A DNA stretch of 64,000 bases from the UHGV virus genome UHGV-0148165, one strand, 5' to 3'. Position numbers and translations under genes: made by a program. Below, piece after piece: positions 4,823 to 27,184 of this stretch (the first letter of the stretch is position 1; every line of letters starts with the position of its first letter). This stretch comes from a virus. The notes beneath the pieces are model-generated. The model saw only the letters and a list, made by a program, of their open reading frames with translations, was not told the DNA's origin and did no database searches.

Positions 4823-5316
4823 GGAAAATTATGGAAGCAATTTTGTTTGAAATGTATATTAGCAGTAATAGTATGTCGTTTGCTAAAGATGTTCCAATTA
4901 CTGTAGCCGTAATGATTGATAAGGGTTATCGTAACCCTATGTATCTCGTAGAAAATTTTGTTTCAATGCCAGTTCCAGAAGATGTTGAAATAAAACTTAA
5001 AAAGATCGGAATTATTGAAACTGTGCCAAATAGTCCGTTTAGAGCAATTGAAGCATTTACTAAATCCGAATACATTAATGTTAGCGCAGAACAATATAAT
5101 GGTAATCCTTTATCTTTTTATTCGTACGATTCAGTATATGACTGGAAAATAGATAAAGGAAATAAATTTATAATTGCGAGTGAAGATGCTTTATCATACT
5201 TCATTTATTATGTATGGAATAATTTAAATCCAAAATTGCTAAAAATTCATGAATTTGACGATGCTCCTACTATTGTTTTAGGTAAAATAAATGAAAGCTC
5301 TCAAGAAGATTCTTGA
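4819..5316 (+). CDS. hypothetical protein, 165 aa
   Basis: complete ORF, start overlaps upstream stop. Confidence 0.5.
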
Positions 5317-18923: not shown

Positions 18924-19862
18924 ATGTACAATATTAAATGCCTGACCAAAAACGAACAAGCTGAAATTGTTAAACTGTATTCAAGTGGTAATTACACCCA
19001 ACAGGAATTGGCTGATTGGCAAGGTGTATCGGTTGACACAATCCGTCGTGTTTTGAAAAATGCTGAAGAAGCTAAACGCCCTAAAGTTACTATTAGCGGT
19101 GATATTACAGTTAAAGTTAATAGCGATGCAGTTATTGCTCCAGTTGCTAAATCTGACATTATTTGGAATGCATCTAAAAAATTCATTTCAATTACTGTTG
19201 ACGGTGTAACTTATAACGCAACTCCTAATACTCATTCAAACTTCCAGGAAATTCTTAATCTGCTTGTAGCGGATAAGTTGGAAGAAGCGGCACAAAAAAT
19301 TAATGTTCGTCGCGCTGTTGAAAAATATATTTCCGGCGATGTTCGAATTGAAGGTGGAAGCTTGTTCTATCAAAATATTGAATTGCGGTCTGGTTTGGTT
19401 GATCGTATTCTTGACTCGATGGAAAAAGGCGAAAACTTTGAATTTTATTTTCCGTTCTTGGAAAATCTGCTGGAAAACCCAAGCCAAAAAGCAGTATCTC
19501 GACTCTTTGATTTCTTGGTAGCAAACGATATTGAAATTACAGAAGATGGCTACTTCTATGCTTGGAAAGTAGTTCGCAGCAATTACTTTGACTGTCACTC
19601 AAACACCTTTGATAACAGTCCGGGTAAAGTAGTTAAAATGCCACGTACTCGTGTGAACGACGATGATACACAAACTTGTTCTCGTGGTCTGCATGTGTGT
19701 TCTAAATCTTATATTCGTCACTTTGGCAGTTCAACCAGCCGAGTTGTAAAAGTTAAAGTTCATCCTCGCGATGTAGTATCAATTCCGATTGATTACAACC
19801 ATGCTAAAATGCGTACCTGCCAATACGAAGTAGTTGAAGACGTTACTGAACAATTTAAATAA
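18924..19862 (+). CDS. rIIB: rIIB protein, 312 aa
   Basis: length identical to T4 rIIB; position after rIIA. Confidence 0.9.
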   Translation: MYNIKCLTKNEQAEIVKLYSSGNYTQQELADWQGVSVDTIRRVLKNAEEAKRPKVTISGDITVKVNSDAVIAPVAKSDIIWNASKKFISITVDGVTYNATPNTHSNFQEILNLLVADKLEEAAQKINVRRAVEKYISGDVRIEGGSLFYQNIELRSGLVDRILDSMEKGENFEFYFPFLENLLENPSQKAVSRLFDFLVANDIEITEDGYFYAWKVVRSNYFDCHSNTFDNSPGKVVKMPRTRVNDDDTQTCSRGLHVCSKSYIRHFGSSTSRVVKVKVHPRDVVSIPIDYNHAKMRTCQYEVVEDVTEQFK

Positions 19863-19875
19863 GGGCTTCGGCCCT
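19862..19875 (+). terminator. UUCG-tetraloop RNA hairpin after rIIB (no T-run; stability element or weak terminator)
   Basis: AGGGC-TTCG-GCCCT immediately after rIIB stop. Confidence 0.4.
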
Positions 19876-19890
19876 TAACTAAGGAAAATT

Positions 19891-20085
19891 ATGTTAGGTT
19901 ATCAAGCACGAGTAAAAGAAGAATACGATCAATTAATGCTCAAAATTAATGCACTGAGCAATTTTTTAGAAAGCGCAAAGTTTCTAACAGTTAGTGCAGT
20001 TGAGCAAGAACTGCTACTTTCACAGTTCATCTCAATGAAATCTTATGCTGAATGTCTAGAGAAAAGAATTGCACAATTCAAATAA
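19891..20085 (+). CDS. hypothetical protein, 64 aa
   Basis: ATG after AAGGAAAATT; flanked by two hairpins. Confidence 0.4.
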   Translation: MLGYQARVKEEYDQLMLKINALSNFLESAKFLTVSAVEQELLLSQFISMKSYAECLEKRIAQFK

Positions 20086-20169: not shown

Positions 20170-20727
20170 ATGCAGAAAACAAATCCTGGGTTACAGAGAC
20201 TATTTCAGATTCCGACATTTACCCTATCGAACAGTGACTTGACTAGTGAAATGAAGGTCAAAATTGCTGATACAGCAAGATACTCTTTAAAACAAAACCC
20301 GAACCAGGATAAAGCAGAAGTTATCGAAAGATGCCGTATCGCGGTGTACGCAGAGTTTTTTGTAGCAGATTGGCTAAGCGGGTATGTTAACAAAGGCCAA
20401 GAGGATGTTAATGACCCATATACATACGCATGGGATGTATTGGCGCATCCAAGATACTGCGGGCTTCGTGTAGAAGTTAAGACACATCAAACTGACTCAC
20501 GTTGGATTTCTGTAACAACAGGATGCAGCGGAGAGTATCCATATGGTTCTGGAATAAATCTAGGGCCCATTCTGAATCATCAGGTCGCTGACTGTATAAT
20601 TATATTCAACACTAAAGAAATTCACCCAGGTGTCATTCAGTACACTCCGAAGTTCATTGGTGATAGAGAAGACCTTCGTAAGGTTGTAAGAAAAAGCAAC
20701 TACAACGGATGGTATCTTTCCATTTAA
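20170..20727 (+). CDS. denB: endonuclease IV DenB, 185 aa
   Basis: length matches T4 DenB; position between rIIB and ndd. Confidence 0.75.
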   Translation: MQKTNPGLQRLFQIPTFTLSNSDLTSEMKVKIADTARYSLKQNPNQDKAEVIERCRIAVYAEFFVADWLSGYVNKGQEDVNDPYTYAWDVLAHPRYCGLRVEVKTHQTDSRWISVTTGCSGEYPYGSGINLGPILNHQVADCIIIFNTKEIHPGVIQYTPKFIGDREDLRKVVRKSNYNGWYLSI

Positions 20728-20743
20728 AAATTTTCACAAAACG

Positions 20744-20773
20744 GTTTACATACCACAAGGACTGTGGTACTAT
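20744..20773 (+). promoter_or_regulatory. strong T4 early promoter with AT-rich UP element
   Basis: AAAAATTTTCACAAAACG then GTTTAC 20744-20749, 18-nt spacer, TGG-TACTAT 20768-20773. Confidence 0.6.
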
Positions 20774-20800: not shown

Positions 20801-21064
20801 ATGAAATTTAAATTTTATTACGCTAAACATAAAATTACCGGTGAATTTATTGCATTTACGACTTCAACTACAGATGAAGGAGATATTTTTACTGCAGTAT
20901 TTTTATCAAAATGGGAATCAGATCAACCTTACTTATCATCACGTGAAGATCTCCAACGATTAGTTAATGGAGAATATAATGATTCATGGTCATATTTAGT
21001 CCATGATTGTGTTAAAAAGGCAATAAAACAAAAACACTTGGAAATCGTTGAGATTGAACTATGA
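20801..21064 (+). CDS. hypothetical protein, 87 aa
   Basis: ATG after GGAGGAGTAAAA. Confidence 0.5.
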   Translation: MKFKFYYAKHKITGEFIAFTTSTTDEGDIFTAVFLSKWESDQPYLSSREDLQRLVNGEYNDSWSYLVHDCVKKAIKQKHLEIVEIEL

Positions 21065-21147
21065 GTTCATTATGGTGGTGTTTTGTTTGGTTAATTAGTA
21101 TTCCAGTAATTTGTTTAACATTTACTTTTGTGATGAGGTTATTATGA
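21061..21147 (+). CDS. tiny hydrophobic peptide, 28 aa
   Basis: read manually; ATGA overlap with upstream stop; MSSLWWCFVWLISIPVICLTFTFVMRLL. Confidence 0.3.
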   Translation: MSSLWWCFVWLISIPVICLTFTFVMRLL

Positions 21148-21242
21148 AAATTTTGAATTCTGTACTTATTGCTTGTGCGTGGTGGGTTGTGCAAGTTTCA
21201 GCGGTAGTAGTTGGTATTCACATTTATTACGAATATTTTTAA
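21144..21242 (+). CDS. tiny hydrophobic peptide, 32 aa
   Basis: read manually; start overlaps previous stop; MKILNSVLIACAWWVVQVSAVVVGIHIYYEYF. Confidence 0.3.
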   Translation: MKILNSVLIACAWWVVQVSAVVVGIHIYYEYF

Positions 21243-21248
21243 AAAGTT

Positions 21249-21278
21249 GTTTACAAGACTGTTCTTCCGTGGTACTAT
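21249..21278 (+). promoter_or_regulatory. T4 early-type promoter
   Basis: GTTTAC 21249-21254, 18-nt spacer, TACTAT 21273-21278. Confidence 0.5.
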
Positions 21279-21306
21279 TACCCTATCAACTACGGAGGAA
21301 CAGAAA

Positions 21307-21420
21307 ATGAAAAAGATTGTTAAAGCTATATGGAATGTAGTTATAATACTAATAGTTTTGAGTATATTCCCAATCGTTTTAATGATTGATGTATTAAACG
21401 TTTACTTTGGATTTATGTGA
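21307..21420 (+). CDS. small membrane peptide, 37 aa
   Basis: ATG 21307 after GGAGGAA; track ORF 21211 starts inside the promoter; hydrophobic core VVIILIVLSIFPIVLMI. Confidence 0.35.
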   Translation: MKKIVKAIWNVVIILIVLSIFPIVLMIDVLNVYFGFM

Positions 21421-21427
21421 GGAAAAT

Positions 21428-21625
21428 ATGAAGCGTAAACGCAGTGCTTTTACATTTATTGAATGGTTTTTCGATAATATTTTTCCGGCTTTATTCATTT
21501 TCATGCTGATTTTTGCCTTAGGTTCAGTTGTAGTTGGAATTTATTTGATGACGGTAGTCGGAATGGATATTCATCAAAATGGTTTAAAATCCGTGGTTGA
21601 AACAATTTGGAATGGTGTAAAATGA
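21428..21625 (+). CDS. small membrane protein, 65 aa
   Basis: ATG 21428 after GAGGAAAAT; hydrophobic segment FPALFIFMLIFALGSVVVGIYLMTVV. Confidence 0.4.
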   Translation: MKRKRSAFTFIEWFFDNIFPALFIFMLIFALGSVVVGIYLMTVVGMDIHQNGLKSVVETIWNGVK

Positions 21626-21732
21626 TGAATTTGCTGAGTGGTTGGTTTTATATTCTTATGTTTTACATTGGTGCAAATTTCCCATATTGGATGGGATGGT
21701 CAACAACTGCATTTGGATTTTATACTCCTTGA
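21622..21732 (+). CDS. tiny hydrophobic peptide, 36 aa
   Basis: read manually; ATGA overlap; aromatic-rich MMNLLSGWFYILMFYIGANFPYWMGW. Confidence 0.3.
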   Translation: MMNLLSGWFYILMFYIGANFPYWMGWSTTAFGFYTP

Positions 21733-21740
21733 GGTGAATT

Positions 21741-21956
21741 ATGAAAAGTTTTAAAGATGTAAAAGTTGGTGAAATTTTTTGTTTAGATAACGGTGATCAG
21801 TTAATTCGTATTTCACCTCTTAAGAGCACTAGCGAGAAAATGACAGTTAACGCTACTTTAGAAAATAATAGTAATGAACGTTTCTGTATTGAAAATGATA
21901 CTGAAACTTATACCGTAGAAGAATTCTGGGAATTGAGCGTCGACTGCGACGATTAA
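21741..21956 (+). CDS. hypothetical protein, 71 aa
   Basis: ATG after GAGGTGAATT. Confidence 0.45.
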   Translation: MKSFKDVKVGEIFCLDNGDQLIRISPLKSTSEKMTVNATLENNSNERFCIENDTETYTVEEFWELSVDCDD

Positions 21957-22016
21957 TTTATCGGCCGTGTGTATTCATACGGCCTTGGAGTAGAAAATAA
22001 TTTAGAGGAAATTAAT

Positions 22017-22472
22017 ATGAAATATATGACTGTTACTGATCTGAATAATGCAGGCGCAACTGTTATTGGTACAATCAAGGGTGGTGAGTGGTTTTTGGGA
22101 ACTCCGCACAAAGACATTTTGTCTAAACCTGGATTTTACTTTTTAGTGAGTAAACTCGGTGGTCCATTTAGTAGTCCATGCGTATCTGCACGATTTTATG
22201 TAGGTAATCAGCGTTCTAAGCAAGGATTCAGTGCGGTTTTAAGTCATATTCGTCAACGCCGGTCTCAGCTTGCGCGTACTATTGCAAATAACAATGTTCC
22301 ATACACAGTATTTTATCTGCCTGCTTCTAAGATGAAACCTCTGACGACAGGATTTGGAAAAGGTCAGTTAGCTTTGGCGTTTACTCGTAATCATCATTCT
22401 GAGTATCAAACACTTGAAGAAATGAACCGCATGTTGGCTGATAACTTTAAATTCGTTTTGCAGGCATATTAA
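22017..22472 (+). CDS. ndd: nucleoid disruption protein Ndd, 151 aa
   Basis: 151 aa from ATG 22017 (track ORF starts at upstream alternative start); position next to stp/ac as in T4. Confidence 0.65.
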
Positions 22473-22559: not shown

Positions 22560-22718
22560 ATGAATATCGCAAAATTATTAGGAGTTATTTCATTTATTTG
22601 TTGGATAGTAGCATGTGTTTTAACTATCTGTATTGATGCCAGCAGTGTGTTTTCGCAAGCTTTAGCTCAGGGTATGTGTGCATATTTAACATTTGTGTTG
22701 TTATCTACTAATGATTAA
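22560..22718 (+). CDS. ac: small membrane protein, 52 aa (ac-type)
   Basis: read manually; ATG after GAGGAAAAT; hydrophobic MNIAKLLGVISFICWIVACVLTICID. Confidence 0.5.
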   Translation: MNIAKLLGVISFICWIVACVLTICIDASSVFSQALAQGMCAYLTFVLLSTND

Positions 22719-22851
22719 GAAAATCTTGGGCTATTCATTAGCCCTTGCTATTTTATTGATAGCATTATATTACGGAATAATGTTCGGATTAATTCAAGTC
22801 GTGCTTTTCATTTCTGATGTTATTATGGCACTACATTCACTAGTATGGTAA
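22711..22851 (+). CDS. small membrane peptide, 46 aa
   Basis: read manually; start overlaps ac stop; stop 4 nt before gene 52 ATG. Confidence 0.35.
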   Translation: MIKKILGYSLALAILLIALYYGIMFGLIQVVLFISDVIMALHSLVW

Positions 22852-22855
22852 ATTT

Positions 22856-24184
22856 ATGCAACTGAATAATCGTGATTTAAAAAGTATCATTGATAATGAA
22901 GCATTGGCTTATGCTATGTACACGGTTGAAAATCGTGCCATTCCAAATATGATTGACGGATTTAAGCCAGTTCAACGATTTGTTATTGCTCGAGCTCTTG
23001 ATTTGGCACGAGGAAATAAAGATAAGTTTCACAAACTCGCTTCTATCGCAGGCGGTGTAGCGGACCTTGGATATCATCATGGTGAAAACTCTGCGCAAGA
23101 CGCAGGTGCTTTGATGGCTAACACTTGGAATAATAACTTTCCTCTGTTAGACGGTCAAGGAAACTTTGGTTCTCGTACTGTCCAAAAGGCAGCAGCAAGT
23201 CGTTATATTTTTGCTCGTGTAAGTAAAAATTTCTATAACGTATATAAAGATACTGAATATGCTCCAGTACATCAAGATAAAGAACACATTCCGCCTGCTT
23301 TCTATTTGCCTATTATTCCTACTGTTCTTCTTAATGGCGTTTCCGGTATTGCAACTGGTTATGCAACTTACATTCTTCCTCATAGTGTTTCTTCTGTCAA
23401 GAAAGCTGTACTGCAAGCTCTTCAAGGAAAGAAAGTAACTAAACCGAAGGTAGAATTCCCAGAATTTCGTGGTGAAGTCGTTGAAATTGATGGGCAATAT
23501 GAAATTCGTGGAACATATAAGTTTACTTCACGAACTCAAATGCATATCACTGAGATTCCGTATAAGTATGATCGTGAAACTTACGTGAGTAAAATCTTAG
23601 ACCCGCTTGAAGATAAAGGCTTCATTACATGGGATGATGCTTGCGGTGAGCATGGTTTTGGCTTTAAAATTAAATTCCGCAAAGAATACTCTTTGAGCGA
23701 TAATGAAGAAGAACGCCATGCAAAAATTATGAAAGACTTCGGGTTGATTGAGCGTCGTTCTCAGAATATTACGGTTATTAATGAAAAAGGAAAGCTACAA
23801 GTTTACGATAACGTAGTTGATTTAATTAAAGACTTCGTTGAAGTTCGTAAAACTTATGTCCAAAAACGAATTGATAACAAAATTAAAGAAACTGAGTCAG
23901 CTTTTCGTTTAGCCTTTGCCAAGGCACATTTCATTAAGAAAGTAATTTCAGGTGAAATCGTTGTGCAGGGTAAAACTCGTAAAGAACTGACCGAAGAACT
24001 TTCGAAAATCGATATGTATTCTTCTTATGTTGATAAACTAGTTGGAATGAATATTTTTCACATGACTTCTGATGAAGCAAAGAAACTTGCTGAAGAAGCT
24101 AAAGCCAAAAAAGAAGAAAACGAATATTGGAAAACTACTGATGTAGTTACAGAATACACCAAAGATTTAGAGGAAATCAAATGA
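22856..24184 (+). CDS. 52: DNA topoisomerase II medium subunit gp52, GyrA-like, 442 aa
   Basis: length identical to T4 gp52; GyrA-like N-terminal region. Confidence 0.9.
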   Translation: MQLNNRDLKSIIDNEALAYAMYTVENRAIPNMIDGFKPVQRFVIARALDLARGNKDKFHKLASIAGGVADLGYHHGENSAQDAGALMANTWNNNFPLLDGQGNFGSRTVQKAAASRYIFARVSKNFYNVYKDTEYAPVHQDKEHIPPAFYLPIIPTVLLNGVSGIATGYATYILPHSVSSVKKAVLQALQGKKVTKPKVEFPEFRGEVVEIDGQYEIRGTYKFTSRTQMHITEIPYKYDRETYVSKILDPLEDKGFITWDDACGEHGFGFKIKFRKEYSLSDNEEERHAKIMKDFGLIERRSQNITVINEKGKLQVYDNVVDLIKDFVEVRKTYVQKRIDNKIKETESAFRLAFAKAHFIKKVISGEIVVQGKTRKELTEELSKIDMYSSYVDKLVGMNIFHMTSDEAKKLAEEAKAKKEENEYWKTTDVVTEYTKDLEEIK

Positions 24185-24330
24185 GTCCATTCATTGGTAT
24201 CACAAGCGCTGCATTAGTATCTGGTGGCATTTTACTGGCGGGTTTAGGTGTTGTTCCTGCCGTAGCAGGAGGTCTTCTTGCGTTCGGAATTCAACGTGTT
24301 ATCATGACAGTTATCACAGTCATGCAGTAA
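24181..24330 (+). CDS. small Gly/Ala-rich membrane protein, 49 aa
   Basis: read manually; ATGA overlap with gene 52 stop; followed by strong terminator. Confidence 0.4.
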   Translation: MSPFIGITSAALVSGGILLAGLGVVPAVAGGLLAFGIQRVIMTVITVMQ

Positions 24331-24335
24331 TTTTA

Positions 24336-24360
24336 GGGAGAGCCGAGGCTCTCCCTTTTT
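24336..24360 (+). terminator. intrinsic terminator
   Basis: GGGAGAGCC-GA-GGCTCTCCC stem followed by TTTTT. Confidence 0.7.
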
Positions 24361-24385
24361 ATTTTAAAAATTTTTTCACAAAACG

Positions 24386-24415
24386 GTTTACAACCAAAGC
24401 ATACTGTGGTACTAT
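24386..24415 (+). promoter_or_regulatory. strong T4 early promoter with UP element, upstream of motA
   Basis: AAAAATTTTTTCACAAAACG then GTTTAC 24386-24391, 18-nt spacer, TGG-TACTAT 24410-24415. Confidence 0.6.
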
Positions 24416-26471: not shown

Positions 26472-26750
26472 ATGATTATTGATTCTCAATCTGTGGTTCA
26501 ATACACAATCAAAATTGATATTCTAGAAAAGCTATATAAGTTTCTACCAAACCTATACCATTCAATTGTCAATGAATTAGTTGAAGAGTTACATCTTGAG
26601 AATAATGATTTCTTGATTGGAACTTATAAAGACCTCTCAAAAGCAGGATATTTTTACGTAATTCCAGCTCCAGGAAAAAGTATTGATGATGTATTAGAAA
26701 CTATAATGATTTATGTCCATGATTACGAAATTGAAGATTATTTCGAATGA
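26472..26750 (+). CDS. arn: Arn-like acidic protein, 92 aa (anti-restriction, McrBC inhibitor in T4)
   Basis: 92 aa, strongly acidic, located just upstream of asiA as in T4; assignment from memory. Confidence 0.5.
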   Translation: MIIDSQSVVQYTIKIDILEKLYKFLPNLYHSIVNELVEELHLENNDFLIGTYKDLSKAGYFYVIPAPGKSIDDVLETIMIYVHDYEIEDYFE

Positions 26751-26899
26751 GTCATAATCTTGAAAAGGTAATCGAGCATAATGTAGCTCAGGAACGCGAG
26801 TCGTTCAAGGAATTCGTAGAAAAAATTTTTGAAGAAAATAACACAGACCAGTTTACAAATCAAGCGTCTGATGATATTATAACAAAGTCAACTAATTGA
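26747..26899 (+). CDS. small acidic hypothetical protein, 50 aa
   Basis: read manually; ATGA overlap with arn stop. Confidence 0.3.
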   Translation: MSHNLEKVIEHNVAQERESFKEFVEKIFEENNTDQFTNQASDDIITKSTN

Positions 26900-26911
26900 G
26901 TGGTATAGTTA

Positions 26912-27184
26912 ATGAATAAAAACATTGATACAGTTCGTGAAATTATTACTGTTGCATCTATTTTGATTAAATTTTCCAGAGAAGATATTGTTGAGAATCG
27001 TGCTAATTTTATTGCATTTCTTAATGAGATTGGAGTAACGCATGAAGGTAGAAAGTTAAATCAGAATTCATTTCGTAAAATTGTTTCTGAATTAACTCAA
27101 GAAGATAAGAAAACCCTCATCGATGAATTCAACGAGGGTTTTGAGGGTGTATATCGATATCTAGAAATGTATACGAACAAATAA
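26912..27184 (+). CDS. asiA: anti-sigma70 factor AsiA, 90 aa
   Basis: MNKNIDTVREIITVASILIKFSREDIVENRANFIAFLNEIG... matches T4 AsiA as recalled. Confidence 0.85.
   Translation: MNKNIDTVREIITVASILIKFSREDIVENRANFIAFLNEIGVTHEGRKLNQNSFRKIVSELTQEDKKTLIDEFNEGFEGVYRYLEMYTNK

Follow-up and report, generated by a model that had tools for sequence, protein, structure and literature searches.

The window analysed here, a stretch of 64,000 nt (UHGV genome UHGV-0148165), is from a Tequatrovirus, a T4-like phage. Between nt 21061 and 21732 it carries five small ORFs (28–65 aa) on the same strand, as the initial annotation had described. Very probably, these are the ndd.6-ndd.5-ndd.4-(ndd.3/2a)-ndd.2 block, i.e., five real protein-coding, immediate-early genes in the dispensable host-takeover region that runs from denB to gene 52. 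Full-length tblastn matches to the T4 locus gave amino acid identities, in the order ndd.6 to ndd.2, of 100%, 97%, 97–100%, 97% and 97%. The T4 annotation table and a three-way DNA alignment placed the block between denB and ndd.1/ndd, with strand and order unchanged. All five peptides match PHROG profiles (phrog_8851, 5011, 3098, 2401 and 4135, respectively; E-values 1e-17 to 1e-30), three of which are labelled 'outer membrane' or 'periplasmic protein' with no established function, and the rest are of unknown function. Peptides with one hydrophobic alpha-helix are at odds with the T4 labels 'outer membrane' and 'periplasmic'. The ORFs had been presented as mostly missed by the ORF track, which is true of the first-stage list with its 60 aa cut-off, but annotations exist for them in T4 and many relatives. 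They are not overlooked genes: ndd.2 to ndd.6 have been in the T4 annotation for decades, have PHROG families and a Pfam DUF, and are covered by transcriptomic, proteomic and knock-down screens.

Gene models and neighbouring genes

All features described here are on the plus strand unless stated otherwise. The block is preceded by an 87 aa ORF (nt 20801–21064; phrog_2390) for a soluble protein, which is absent from T4, where an 8-codon remnant ORF occupies this position. The ndd.6 orthologue (ORF1, nt 21061–21147, 28 aa) has one predicted transmembrane (TM) segment, and its sole charge is the C-terminal R26. It is followed by the ndd.5 orthologue (ORF2, nt 21144–21242, 32 aa), also with one predicted TM segment. 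The ndd.4 orthologue (ORF3, nt 21307–21420, 37 aa) has a lysine-rich N-terminus, one predicted TM segment, an invariant Asp28 and an aromatic C-terminus.

ORF4 (nt 21428–21625) encodes a 65 aa protein of the DUF7248 family (Pfam PF23906; 71 bits against a gathering cut-off of 27, E = 8e-20, residues 6–63). In the T4 reference it is split into ndd.3 and ndd.2a, whereas the window, most relatives and re-sequenced T4 carry a single gene. The protein has a basic N-terminus, a long predicted TM helix, an invariant Gly52-Leu-Lys and a conserved C-terminal amphipathic helix, and in an AF2 model a helix spanning residues 3–51 is broken at the invariant G52 and followed by a second helix (residues 53–64). 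Conservation in the alignment is concentrated in the C-terminal tail, GLKSVVE.IWNG. The ndd.2 orthologue (ORF5, nt 21625–21732) is 35 aa long when read from its second ATG, or 36 aa from nt 21622; the first ATG is ATA in seven relatives, and the second is conserved. The gene models are corrected as follows: ndd.3 and ndd.2a are one 65 aa gene, ndd.4 is 37 aa, and ndd.2 starts at the second ATG. The final small gene of the run before ndd is the ndd.1 orthologue (nt 21741–21956), encoding an acidic, soluble protein of 71 aa. A minus-strand ORF with a TTG start (nt 21012–21194, 60 aa) was considered and rejected, as the substitution pattern fits the plus-strand frames instead.

Further tiny ORFs indicated at nt 22560–22851 and 24181–24330 proved to be T4 ac, 52.1 and motA.1. 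The acridine resistance gene ac (nt 22560–22718) encodes a predicted membrane protein of 52 aa, identified by T4 orthology, PHROG and hydropathy; 52.1 (nt 22711–22851) encodes a predicted membrane protein of 46 aa, identified by Pfam (DUF7396) and T4 orthology; and motA.1 (nt 24181–24330) encodes a hydrophobic protein of 49 aa, identified by T4 orthology, PHROG and hydropathy.

Gene packing and early promoters

The ORFs are tightly packed. ATGA overlaps join the 87 aa ORF to ORF1 (nt 21061–21064), ORF1 to ORF2 (nt 21144–21147) and ORF4 to ORF5 (nt 21622–21625), and ORF3 and ORF5 each have their stop codon within the GAGG Shine-Dalgarno (SD) sequence of the gene that follows. An SD-like motif precedes every start: GGAGG at ORF3, GAGG at ORF2 and ORF4, and a weak GAG or GGA at the coupled ORF1 and ORF5. 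Packing of this kind, with ATGA/TGATG overlaps and stops embedded in the next SD sequence, lets ribosomes pass from gene to gene.

Two T4-type early promoters, both reading TTTACA-N17-TACTAT with an extended TG, are associated with the block. The first (nt 20745–20773) would serve the 87 aa ORF, ndd.6 and ndd.5. The second is internal (nt 21250–21278, proposed earlier at 21249–21278) and is followed by the leader CTATCAACTACGGAGGA. The window contains 12 copies of the motif TTTACW-N14-TGGTAYWAT, every one on the plus strand, where 0.17 would be expected, and promoter and leader sequence are common to the copies at 20745, 21250 and 24387. The genes belong to a polycistronic unit with sigma-70-type early promoter motifs at 20745 and 21250. 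Both the overlapping stop/start codons with SD sequences and the internal early promoter of the initial annotation can be read directly in the DNA, and its operon-like run is supported as a tightly packed, translationally coupled early unit.

Conservation and selection

The five reading frames are under purifying selection. Pooled over 20 Tequatrovirus genomes, they show 69 synonymous and 36 non-synonymous changes (dN/dS ~0.13, p ~1e-23), compared with dN/dS values of 0.65 and 1.75 for the shifted frames in the same genomes. By gene, dN/dS is 0.09 for ndd.6 (p = 5e-4), 0.13 for ndd.5 (11 synonymous, 5 non-synonymous; p = 9e-5), 0.09 for the 65 aa gene (28 and 10; p = 4e-12) and 0.16 for ndd.2 (18 and 12; p = 1e-6). 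The pattern of ndd.4 alone is weak (5 and 6; dN/dS 0.30, p = 0.05), and its coding status is supported by conservation across genera: no other of the five is so widely conserved, homologues being present in 32 of 36 loci and in 596 phage records, and its ORF is intact in 20 of 20 Tequatrovirus genomes. All five ORFs are intact in nearly all of these 20 genomes. Natural knock-outs, i.e., a stop codon in the 65 aa ORF of T2 and a frameshift in one ndd.6 and in one ndd.2, indicate that individual genes can be lost.

In Tevenvirinae with an Ndd that is 46–64% identical, four of the five families are found again in unchanged order. Genes like ndd.6, the 65 aa gene and ndd.2 are found in 20, 18 and 14 of the 36 loci, respectively, while ndd.5 is confined to Tequatrovirus (491 phage records). 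Homologues of ndd.2 occur in Klebsiella phages and others; a large protein-database search with the 65 aa protein returned close relatives only. The ndd.4-like and 65 aa-like genes adjoin, downstream of an early promoter, in many Tevenvirinae genera, forming a conserved gene pair. Across Tevenvirinae this shows an ancient block that is collinear yet mosaic and in which ndd.4 and DUF7248 persist most. Frame conservation across relatives, on which the initial annotation had made its reading depend, is thus clear.

In T4 itself, transcripts of ndd.2 to ndd.6 are classed as early, their products were not detected in the shotgun proteome, and ndd.1 protein was detected early (PMC9697503). Such non-detection is expected for tiny hydrophobic peptides, and we infer their translation; a literature search found no ribosome-profiling data set for T4 infection. 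That the ORFs are chance openings in T-rich leader sequence, translating as hydrophobic because codons with T at the second position dominate, draws on a region that is 41% T, on enrichment of T at codon position 2 and on the missing proteomic products, but is barely credible and already contradicted by the comparative data: only in the annotated frames are substitutions third-position and chiefly synonymous, about 20 genomes retain open ORFs, members of the peptide families with 25–60% identity are found in other genera with order and coupling kept, and ORF coverage is far above that of shuffled sequence (of the 672 bp, 89% is covered by five ATG ORFs of 28 aa or longer; 2000 dinucleotide shuffles gave 28 ± 18%, and none reached 89%). 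By comparative analysis, all five micro-ORFs are truly coding.

Predicted membrane location and possible functions

The best 19-residue Kyte-Doolittle means of four peptides are about 2.3–3.1 (2.29–3.06). That of ndd.2 is 1.17, under the usual transmembrane threshold; this peptide is 34% aromatic, has zero charged residues and carries the motif G.N.PYW(M/L)GW. The products are, as first described, hydrophobic or aromatic-rich. Judged from sequence, each would be a peptide of 28–65 aa with one hydrophobic helix inserting in the host inner membrane, and ndd.2 may lie at the interface of the membrane rather than cross it. The positive-inside rule predicts an N-in/C-out orientation for ndd.5, ndd.4 and the 65 aa protein, and N-out/C-in for ndd.6. 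A natural chimera, in which ndd.4 is joined to the 65 aa tail (Sf25; listed family PF26889), is consistent with a shared topology. Constraint on the 65 aa protein in its post-helix tail points to a specific binding surface, which would lie on the periplasmic side.

We consider it about evenly balanced whether the five peptides are accessory, host-dependent modulators of the host envelope. By analogy with bacterial small membrane proteins, they would act in the first minutes after infection, either by binding inner-membrane proteins of the host or by disturbing the lipid machinery; they would be neither enzymes nor structural parts, and would be unneeded on laboratory hosts. Single-gene knock-down in T4 by CRISPRi-ART on a laboratory host leaves fitness unaffected, with ndd.1 to ndd.6 scored as 'Not Fit' (PMC11879866 supplement). 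The saΔ9 deletion, which removes 52.1, ac, stp, ndd, ndd.1 to ndd.6 and denB, still gives a phage yield 50% of wild-type (PMC6071114). These two results speak for an accessory role. The peptides match only their own PHROG/DUF families in PHROG and Pfam, and had no match in NCBIfam, PDB sequence profiles or Rfam, nor at E <= 0.1 among PADLOC profiles, which model defence and not anti-defence.

One narrower proposal, which we regard as unlikely, is that at least one peptide, most plausibly from the ndd.4/DUF7248 pair, stimulates phosphatidylglycerol (PG) synthesis after T4 infection by way of the host phospholipid machinery. PG stimulation was first seen in 1968–69 and has been mapped only to the saΔ9 and rIIΔDD2 deletions covering the block. 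According to PMC6071114, saΔ9 abolishes the stimulation, as does the partly overlapping rIIΔDD2, which puts the determinant on the denB side, where ndd.6 to ndd.2 lie, and the authors note that several products of the deleted region are predicted membrane proteins. The side-by-side arrangement of the ndd.4-like and 65 aa-like genes in many genera also fits. However, the mapping leaves single genes unseparated, has denB itself in the overlap and uses strains with other mutations; the text consulted does not say where rIIΔDD2 ends relative to ndd.6–ndd.2; and the peptides show no similarity to any lipid-metabolism protein in Pfam or NCBIfam. More doubtful still is that the ndd.4-like and DUF7248 peptides form a two-peptide inner-membrane module that is the T4 determinant of this stimulation. 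The candidate list for the saΔ9 lipid-synthesis phenotype is narrowed.

Counter-defence is a similarly improbable role: the peptides would neutralise membrane-associated abortive-infection or exclusion systems of certain hosts or prophages, as rII acts against RexAB. Many genes nearby serve host takeover or anti-defence (rIIB, denB, ndd, stp and, farther off, arn), the peptides are dispensable on laboratory hosts yet under purifying selection, and they are distributed over the genera in the mosaic way that accessory genes in an arms race typically show. Against this, no phenotype has been reported, and PADLOC, with its defence models only, gave no match. The anti-defence screen of Ojima et al. 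was not on T4 and does not mention ndd.2 to ndd.6.

Small membrane toxins acting in host shut-off, which would act as type I toxins or holin-like peptides do, by depolarising the inner membrane or making it permeable, and so help to arrest host metabolism, are very unlikely. In favour are the shortness of the peptides and their single hydrophobic helix, and a number of small T4 early genes are described as host-lethal when cloned (PMC6071114), but an infection that depends on energy would suffer from early depolarisation, little yield is lost on knock-down or deletion, and the conserved, specific C-terminal motif of the 65 aa protein suggests that it binds a partner instead of damaging membranes generically.

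Superinfection exclusion, for which the ORFs had been put forward as candidates, would mean that the peptides change the envelope and thereby block DNA injection by T-even phages arriving later; it is suited by early expression and predicted membrane location, and is highly improbable, with nothing found here that points to it in particular. The five peptides match no family beyond their own PHROG/DUF families, with no Imm or Sp family among the PHROG and Pfam matches and none in NCBIfam or PADLOC, knock-down is without fitness effect, and PMC6071114 reports no exclusion defect for saΔ9. In the T4 gene table, sp (19758–20051) and imm.1 (26636–27013) are away from the ndd block. We take T4 exclusion to be accounted for genetically by imm and sp.

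Comparison with known systems

Envelope modulation by the five peptides, the reading preferred here, has its models in AcrZ, MgrB and MgtS, single-helix peptides of ~30–50 aa that bind larger membrane proteins, are difficult to find by proteomics and mostly fall below length cut-offs. The likeness of these bacterial small inner-membrane regulators to the phage peptides is an analogy of mechanism only, without homology. Imm and Sp are likewise small, early, envelope-associated phage proteins, but they are larger than the five peptides, encoded elsewhere in the genome and without detected homology to them. Ac, 52.1 (DUF7396) and MotA.1 resemble the five in being hydrophobic (46–52 aa), early, dispensable and transcribed in the same direction, but are without sequence similarity to them, and a phenotype is known only for ac. 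More broadly, the block illustrates that a length cut-off can conceal an entire class of membrane micro-proteins in phages.

The promoter at 21250 fits the consensus of the PeSL mobile promoter cassettes of T4-type phages (Arbiol 2010; Comeau 2014), given for T4/PST as TTTACW-N17-TAYWAT in PMC4122927 (Comeau 2014), where ndd.4/.5 serves as an example of cassette exchange. No significant stem-loop was found before this promoter (fold of nt 21190–21252, z = -0.58), nor any terminator-like site, and none before the promoter at 20745 (z = +0.7); of the three copies, only the one upstream of motA has a stem-loop (z = -3.3). A full PeSL cassette at the internal promoter was rejected, since the stem-loop is missing upstream of it.

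The value added over the existing T4 annotation is modest, and consists of the corrected gene models and the conserved ndd.4/DUF7248 pair. With the T4 block itself (NC_000866, T4p275–T4p270), the window shares position, order, 97–100% amino acid identity and the internal early promoter.

Gene order and gene models

A 2.8 kb region around the block matches 551 phage records at about 95–97% identity, nearly all of them Tequatrovirus and including T4, T2, T6, RB-type and many Escherichia, Shigella and Yersinia isolates. Local gene order was assigned by comparison with the T4 reference annotation (NC_000866) and phage WilhelmHis; the + strand of the window is the T4 early-gene direction. On this strand, denB (20170–20727) is followed by an 87-aa ORF (20801–21064; phrog_2390), ndd.6 (21061–21147), ndd.5 (21144–21242), ndd.4 (21307–21420), a 65-aa ORF (21428–21625), ndd.2 (21622/21625–21732), ndd.1 (21741–21956) and ndd (22017–22472), and then by stp, ac, 52.1, gene 52, motA.1 and motA. 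The five block peptides (ndd.6 to ndd.2) are 97–100% identical to their T4 counterparts. The initial annotation had presented these ORFs as missed genes, but by sequence and synteny they are assigned to the catalogued T4 ndd.2–ndd.6 block, and the 65-aa protein, by its sequence, to Pfam DUF7248. The promoter is likewise a T4 early promoter, so the finding is already known; added here are confirmed coding status, corrected gene models and a collinear but mosaic pattern across genera. The further tiny membrane ORFs proposed downstream are present, and are ac, 52.1 and motA.1.

The overlapping tiny ORFs, Shine-Dalgarno (SD) sites and internal promoter described initially are all found. ATGA overlaps occur at the 87-aa ORF/ndd.6 and ndd.6/ndd.5 junctions, the 65-aa ORF meets ndd.2 at ATGATG, and ndd.4 and ndd.2 each terminate inside the GAGG SD of the gene that follows. 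Among the SDs, the GGAGG of ndd.4, which comes first after the internal promoter, is the strongest, and those at the coupled starts are only weak. Of the 672 bp, 89% is covered by five ATG ORFs of 28 aa or more, a value reached in none of 2000 dinucleotide shuffles (28 ± 18%).

The internal promoter (21250–21278) reads TTTACA-N17-TACTAT with an extended TG, and agrees with the T4/PST early-promoter cassette consensus of Comeau 2014 (PMC4122927), where ndd.4/.5 illustrates gene exchange mediated by cassettes. Near-repeats of this promoter and its leader occur at 20745 (upstream of the 87-aa ORF) and 24387 (upstream of motA). In its longer T4-type form, TTTACW-N14-TGGTAYWAT, the motif occurs 12 times in the window, always on the + strand, versus 0.17 expected from shuffles. 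Apart from the copies at 20745, 21250 and 24387, these occurrences start at 1871, 4214, 11285, 12983, 16467, 26852, 40842, 41574 and 54608, nine in all; early transcription units are therefore oriented rightward over most of the window. A full PeSL (the mobile promoter and stem-loop cassette of T4-type phages) was rejected for the internal promoter, as no stem-loop was found upstream of 21250, nor upstream of 20745; only the motA-proximal copy has one. That complete cassette (24335–24415) consists of a strong hairpin/terminator (24335–24356; −18.5 kcal/mol, z = −3.3) and an early promoter (24387–24415). Between ndd.1 and ndd there is a further hairpin, GGCCGT-loop-ACGGCC (21962–21983), whose role may lie in processing or stability; an A/G difference from T4 at 21978 maintains the pair (U-A versus U-G). 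Rfam gave no match in the region.

Several gene models differ from the T4 reference, which lacks one G after the ATGAA of the 65-aa ORF (window 21428–21440; about position 5127 of the T4 locus record), splitting it into ndd.3 (26 aa, a PHROG singleton, as also annotated in the CRISPRi-ART study, PMC11879866) and ndd.2a (40 aa). Two T4 genomes sequenced independently (KJ477684 'wild' and OL964745 clone 7t1) carry the G, as do nearly all relatives, and the split probably reflects an error in the reference or a stock polymorphism. T4 ndd.4 is annotated as 42 aa from an ATG inside the SD (CTATGGAGG; window 21289–21309), where the window and WilhelmHis carry CTACGGAGG; the start that is conserved, the ATG at 21307, yields 37 aa. 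Within the paired starts of ndd.2 (21622–21627), the first ATG is replaced by ATA in 7 of 19 relatives, and the stop codon upstream thereby becomes TAA instead of TGA. Because the second ATG (21625) is conserved, ndd.2 probably encodes 35 aa. The 87-aa ORF is absent from T4, which has instead an unannotated 8-codon ORF (MKIAEIEL*; minus strand of its locus record) that combines the first two codons of the longer ORF with its last ones. It still overlaps ndd.6 by a terminal ATGA, as if retained for translational coupling. In distant relatives, an 86–88-aa homologue is coupled to ndd.6-like ORFs via ATGA or TTGA.

Public records are noisy at this locus. Several GenBank/RefSeq entries mislabel the 37-aa ndd.4 as 'naphthalene 1,2-dioxygenase', pSs-1 and Ozark carry an alternative-frame CDS across the promoter, and ndd.6 and/or ndd.2 are often omitted (affected locus records: L042, 667–780; L048, 667–780 and 570–683; L040, 570–683). 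The T4 labels 'outer membrane protein' and 'periplasmic protein' go back to old predictions and are ill-suited to single alpha-helical hydrophobic peptides, 'periplasmic' arising from the truncated ndd.2a model.

Coding status and conservation

The block was aligned from 20 Tequatrovirus genomes (the window, T4, T2, pSs-1, G28, KIT03, phiD1 and others), and in nearly all of them the ORFs are open and of equal length. Substitutions cluster at third codon positions, with 69 synonymous and 36 non-synonymous changes pooled (dN/dS ~0.13, binomial p 1e-23); the +1 and +2 readings of the same columns gave 0.65 and 1.75. Individual values were 0.09 for ndd.6 and the 65-aa ORF, 0.13 for ndd.5 and 0.16 for ndd.2. 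For ndd.4 the value was 0.30 (5 synonymous and 6 non-synonymous changes, mostly Ile/Val/Ala exchanges), not significant alone, and it is taken as coding because of its deeper conservation across loci located through Ndd. Frames are clearly conserved across relatives, and the ORFs are therefore genes. That they are not coding at all has next to no probability, given the pooled dN/dS in the annotated frames and the recurrence of the families across genera.

Isolated exceptions, besides the T4-reference frameshift, are a 2-nt insertion in ndd.6 of one IMG/VR genome, a frameshifted ndd.2 in one genome, and an early stop that truncates the 65-aa ORF of T2 (MH751506) to 44 aa. The relevant positions are 788–922 of the T2 locus record and about 2120 of record L004. 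Single block genes are therefore expendable in some lineages.

Thirty-six Ndd-anchored loci from IMG/VR (Ndd identity 46 to 98%) were also compared. An ndd.4-like ORF of 35–41 aa occurs in 32, with the pattern MKKLLKAIWN...IFP.V.MID...F, a K-rich N-terminus and an invariant Asp past the hydrophobic stretch. In the usual arrangement this ORF comes first after an early promoter and a GGAG(G) SD. A DUF7248-like ORF of 62–69 aa is found in 18 loci, often starting 10 nt past the ndd.4-like stop, and has an invariant G-L-K core inside the motif DGLKSVVE.IWNG. Twenty loci have ndd.6-like and 14 have ndd.2-like ORFs, while ndd.5 is confined to Tequatrovirus. The order ndd.6, ndd.5, ndd.4, 65-aa ORF, ndd.2 is maintained with one exception, and the ATGA or TTGA overlap of ndd.6 with its preceding ORF is likewise conserved. 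In an annotated phage collection, block peptides were found in 491–596 records, ndd.4 at ~60% identity in JS98-like, Enterobacter and Edwardsiella phages and ndd.2 at ~46% in Klebsiella phages.

Predicted products

The initial description of membrane micro-proteins holds up: four peptides each contain a single strongly hydrophobic segment of 19 residues (Kyte-Doolittle means 2.29–3.06), and ndd.2 (mean only 1.17) is 34% aromatic, without charged residues. By the positive-inside rule, ndd.5 (K2), ndd.4 (K2, K3, K6) and the 65-aa protein (KRKR at 2–5) should be N-in/C-out, and ndd.6, with R26 as its sole charge, N-out/C-in. Shigella phage Sf25 gp120 is a natural in-frame chimera of ndd.4 residues 1–31 and 65-aa protein residues 35–65, consistent with the same orientation for both; the precomputed Pfam entries for gp120 include PF26889. 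In the AlphaFold2 model, the 65-aa protein forms a long helix (3–51), a break at invariant Gly52 and a short amphipathic helix (53–64), with a mean pLDDT of 79.5 that drops to 65–73 in the C-terminal third. None of the five peptides showed homology to families of known function (PHROG, Pfam, NCBIfam, PADLOC), and the 65-aa family profile had no significant PDB match.

Possible functions

The block genes are coding, conserved, early-promoter-driven and tightly coupled, and are laboratory-dispensable yet under selection. In T4, transcripts of ndd.2,.2a,.3,.4,.5 and.6 are of the early class (Wolfram-Schauerte 2022, PMC9697503, Table S2); shotgun LC-MS in that study detected Ndd and Ndd.1 but not the ndd.2–ndd.6 proteins. 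CRISPRi-ART knock-down of ndd.1 to ndd.6 scored 'Not Fit' in a laboratory host (Adler 2025, PMC11879866, supplement). The products would be single-helix inner-membrane peptides made in the first minutes of infection, and we give about even chances to their being accessory modulators of the host envelope that bind host inner-membrane proteins or lipid machinery.

Sequence does not discriminate among more specific functions. Lipid-synthesis effectors are possible though unlikely: the classical deletion saΔ9 (loss of 52.1, ac, stp, ndd, ndd.1 to ndd.6 and denB), which yields 50% of wild-type, and the partly overlapping rIIΔDD2 both abolish T4-induced stimulation of phosphatidylglycerol synthesis (Kutter 2018, PMC6071114), the authors reporting ndd.1 to ndd.6 products as without known function. 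The analysis provides a short candidate list for this saΔ9 phenotype, and that the ndd.4/DUF7248 pair is the determinant of the stimulation is improbable. Counter-defence against membrane-based abortive-infection systems is given the same low probability as lipid effectors. Depolarising toxins are improbable; across genera the C-terminal tail of the 65-aa family is almost fixed and its membrane helix freely variable, which points to a specific contact on the opposite side of the membrane, not generic membrane damage. Superinfection exclusion, proposed initially, is about as improbable as toxins and found no support; the peptides do not belong to the Imm or Sp families of T4 exclusion proteins. 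As accessory envelope modulators, the block peptides would resemble the small membrane regulators of bacteria in their mode of action.
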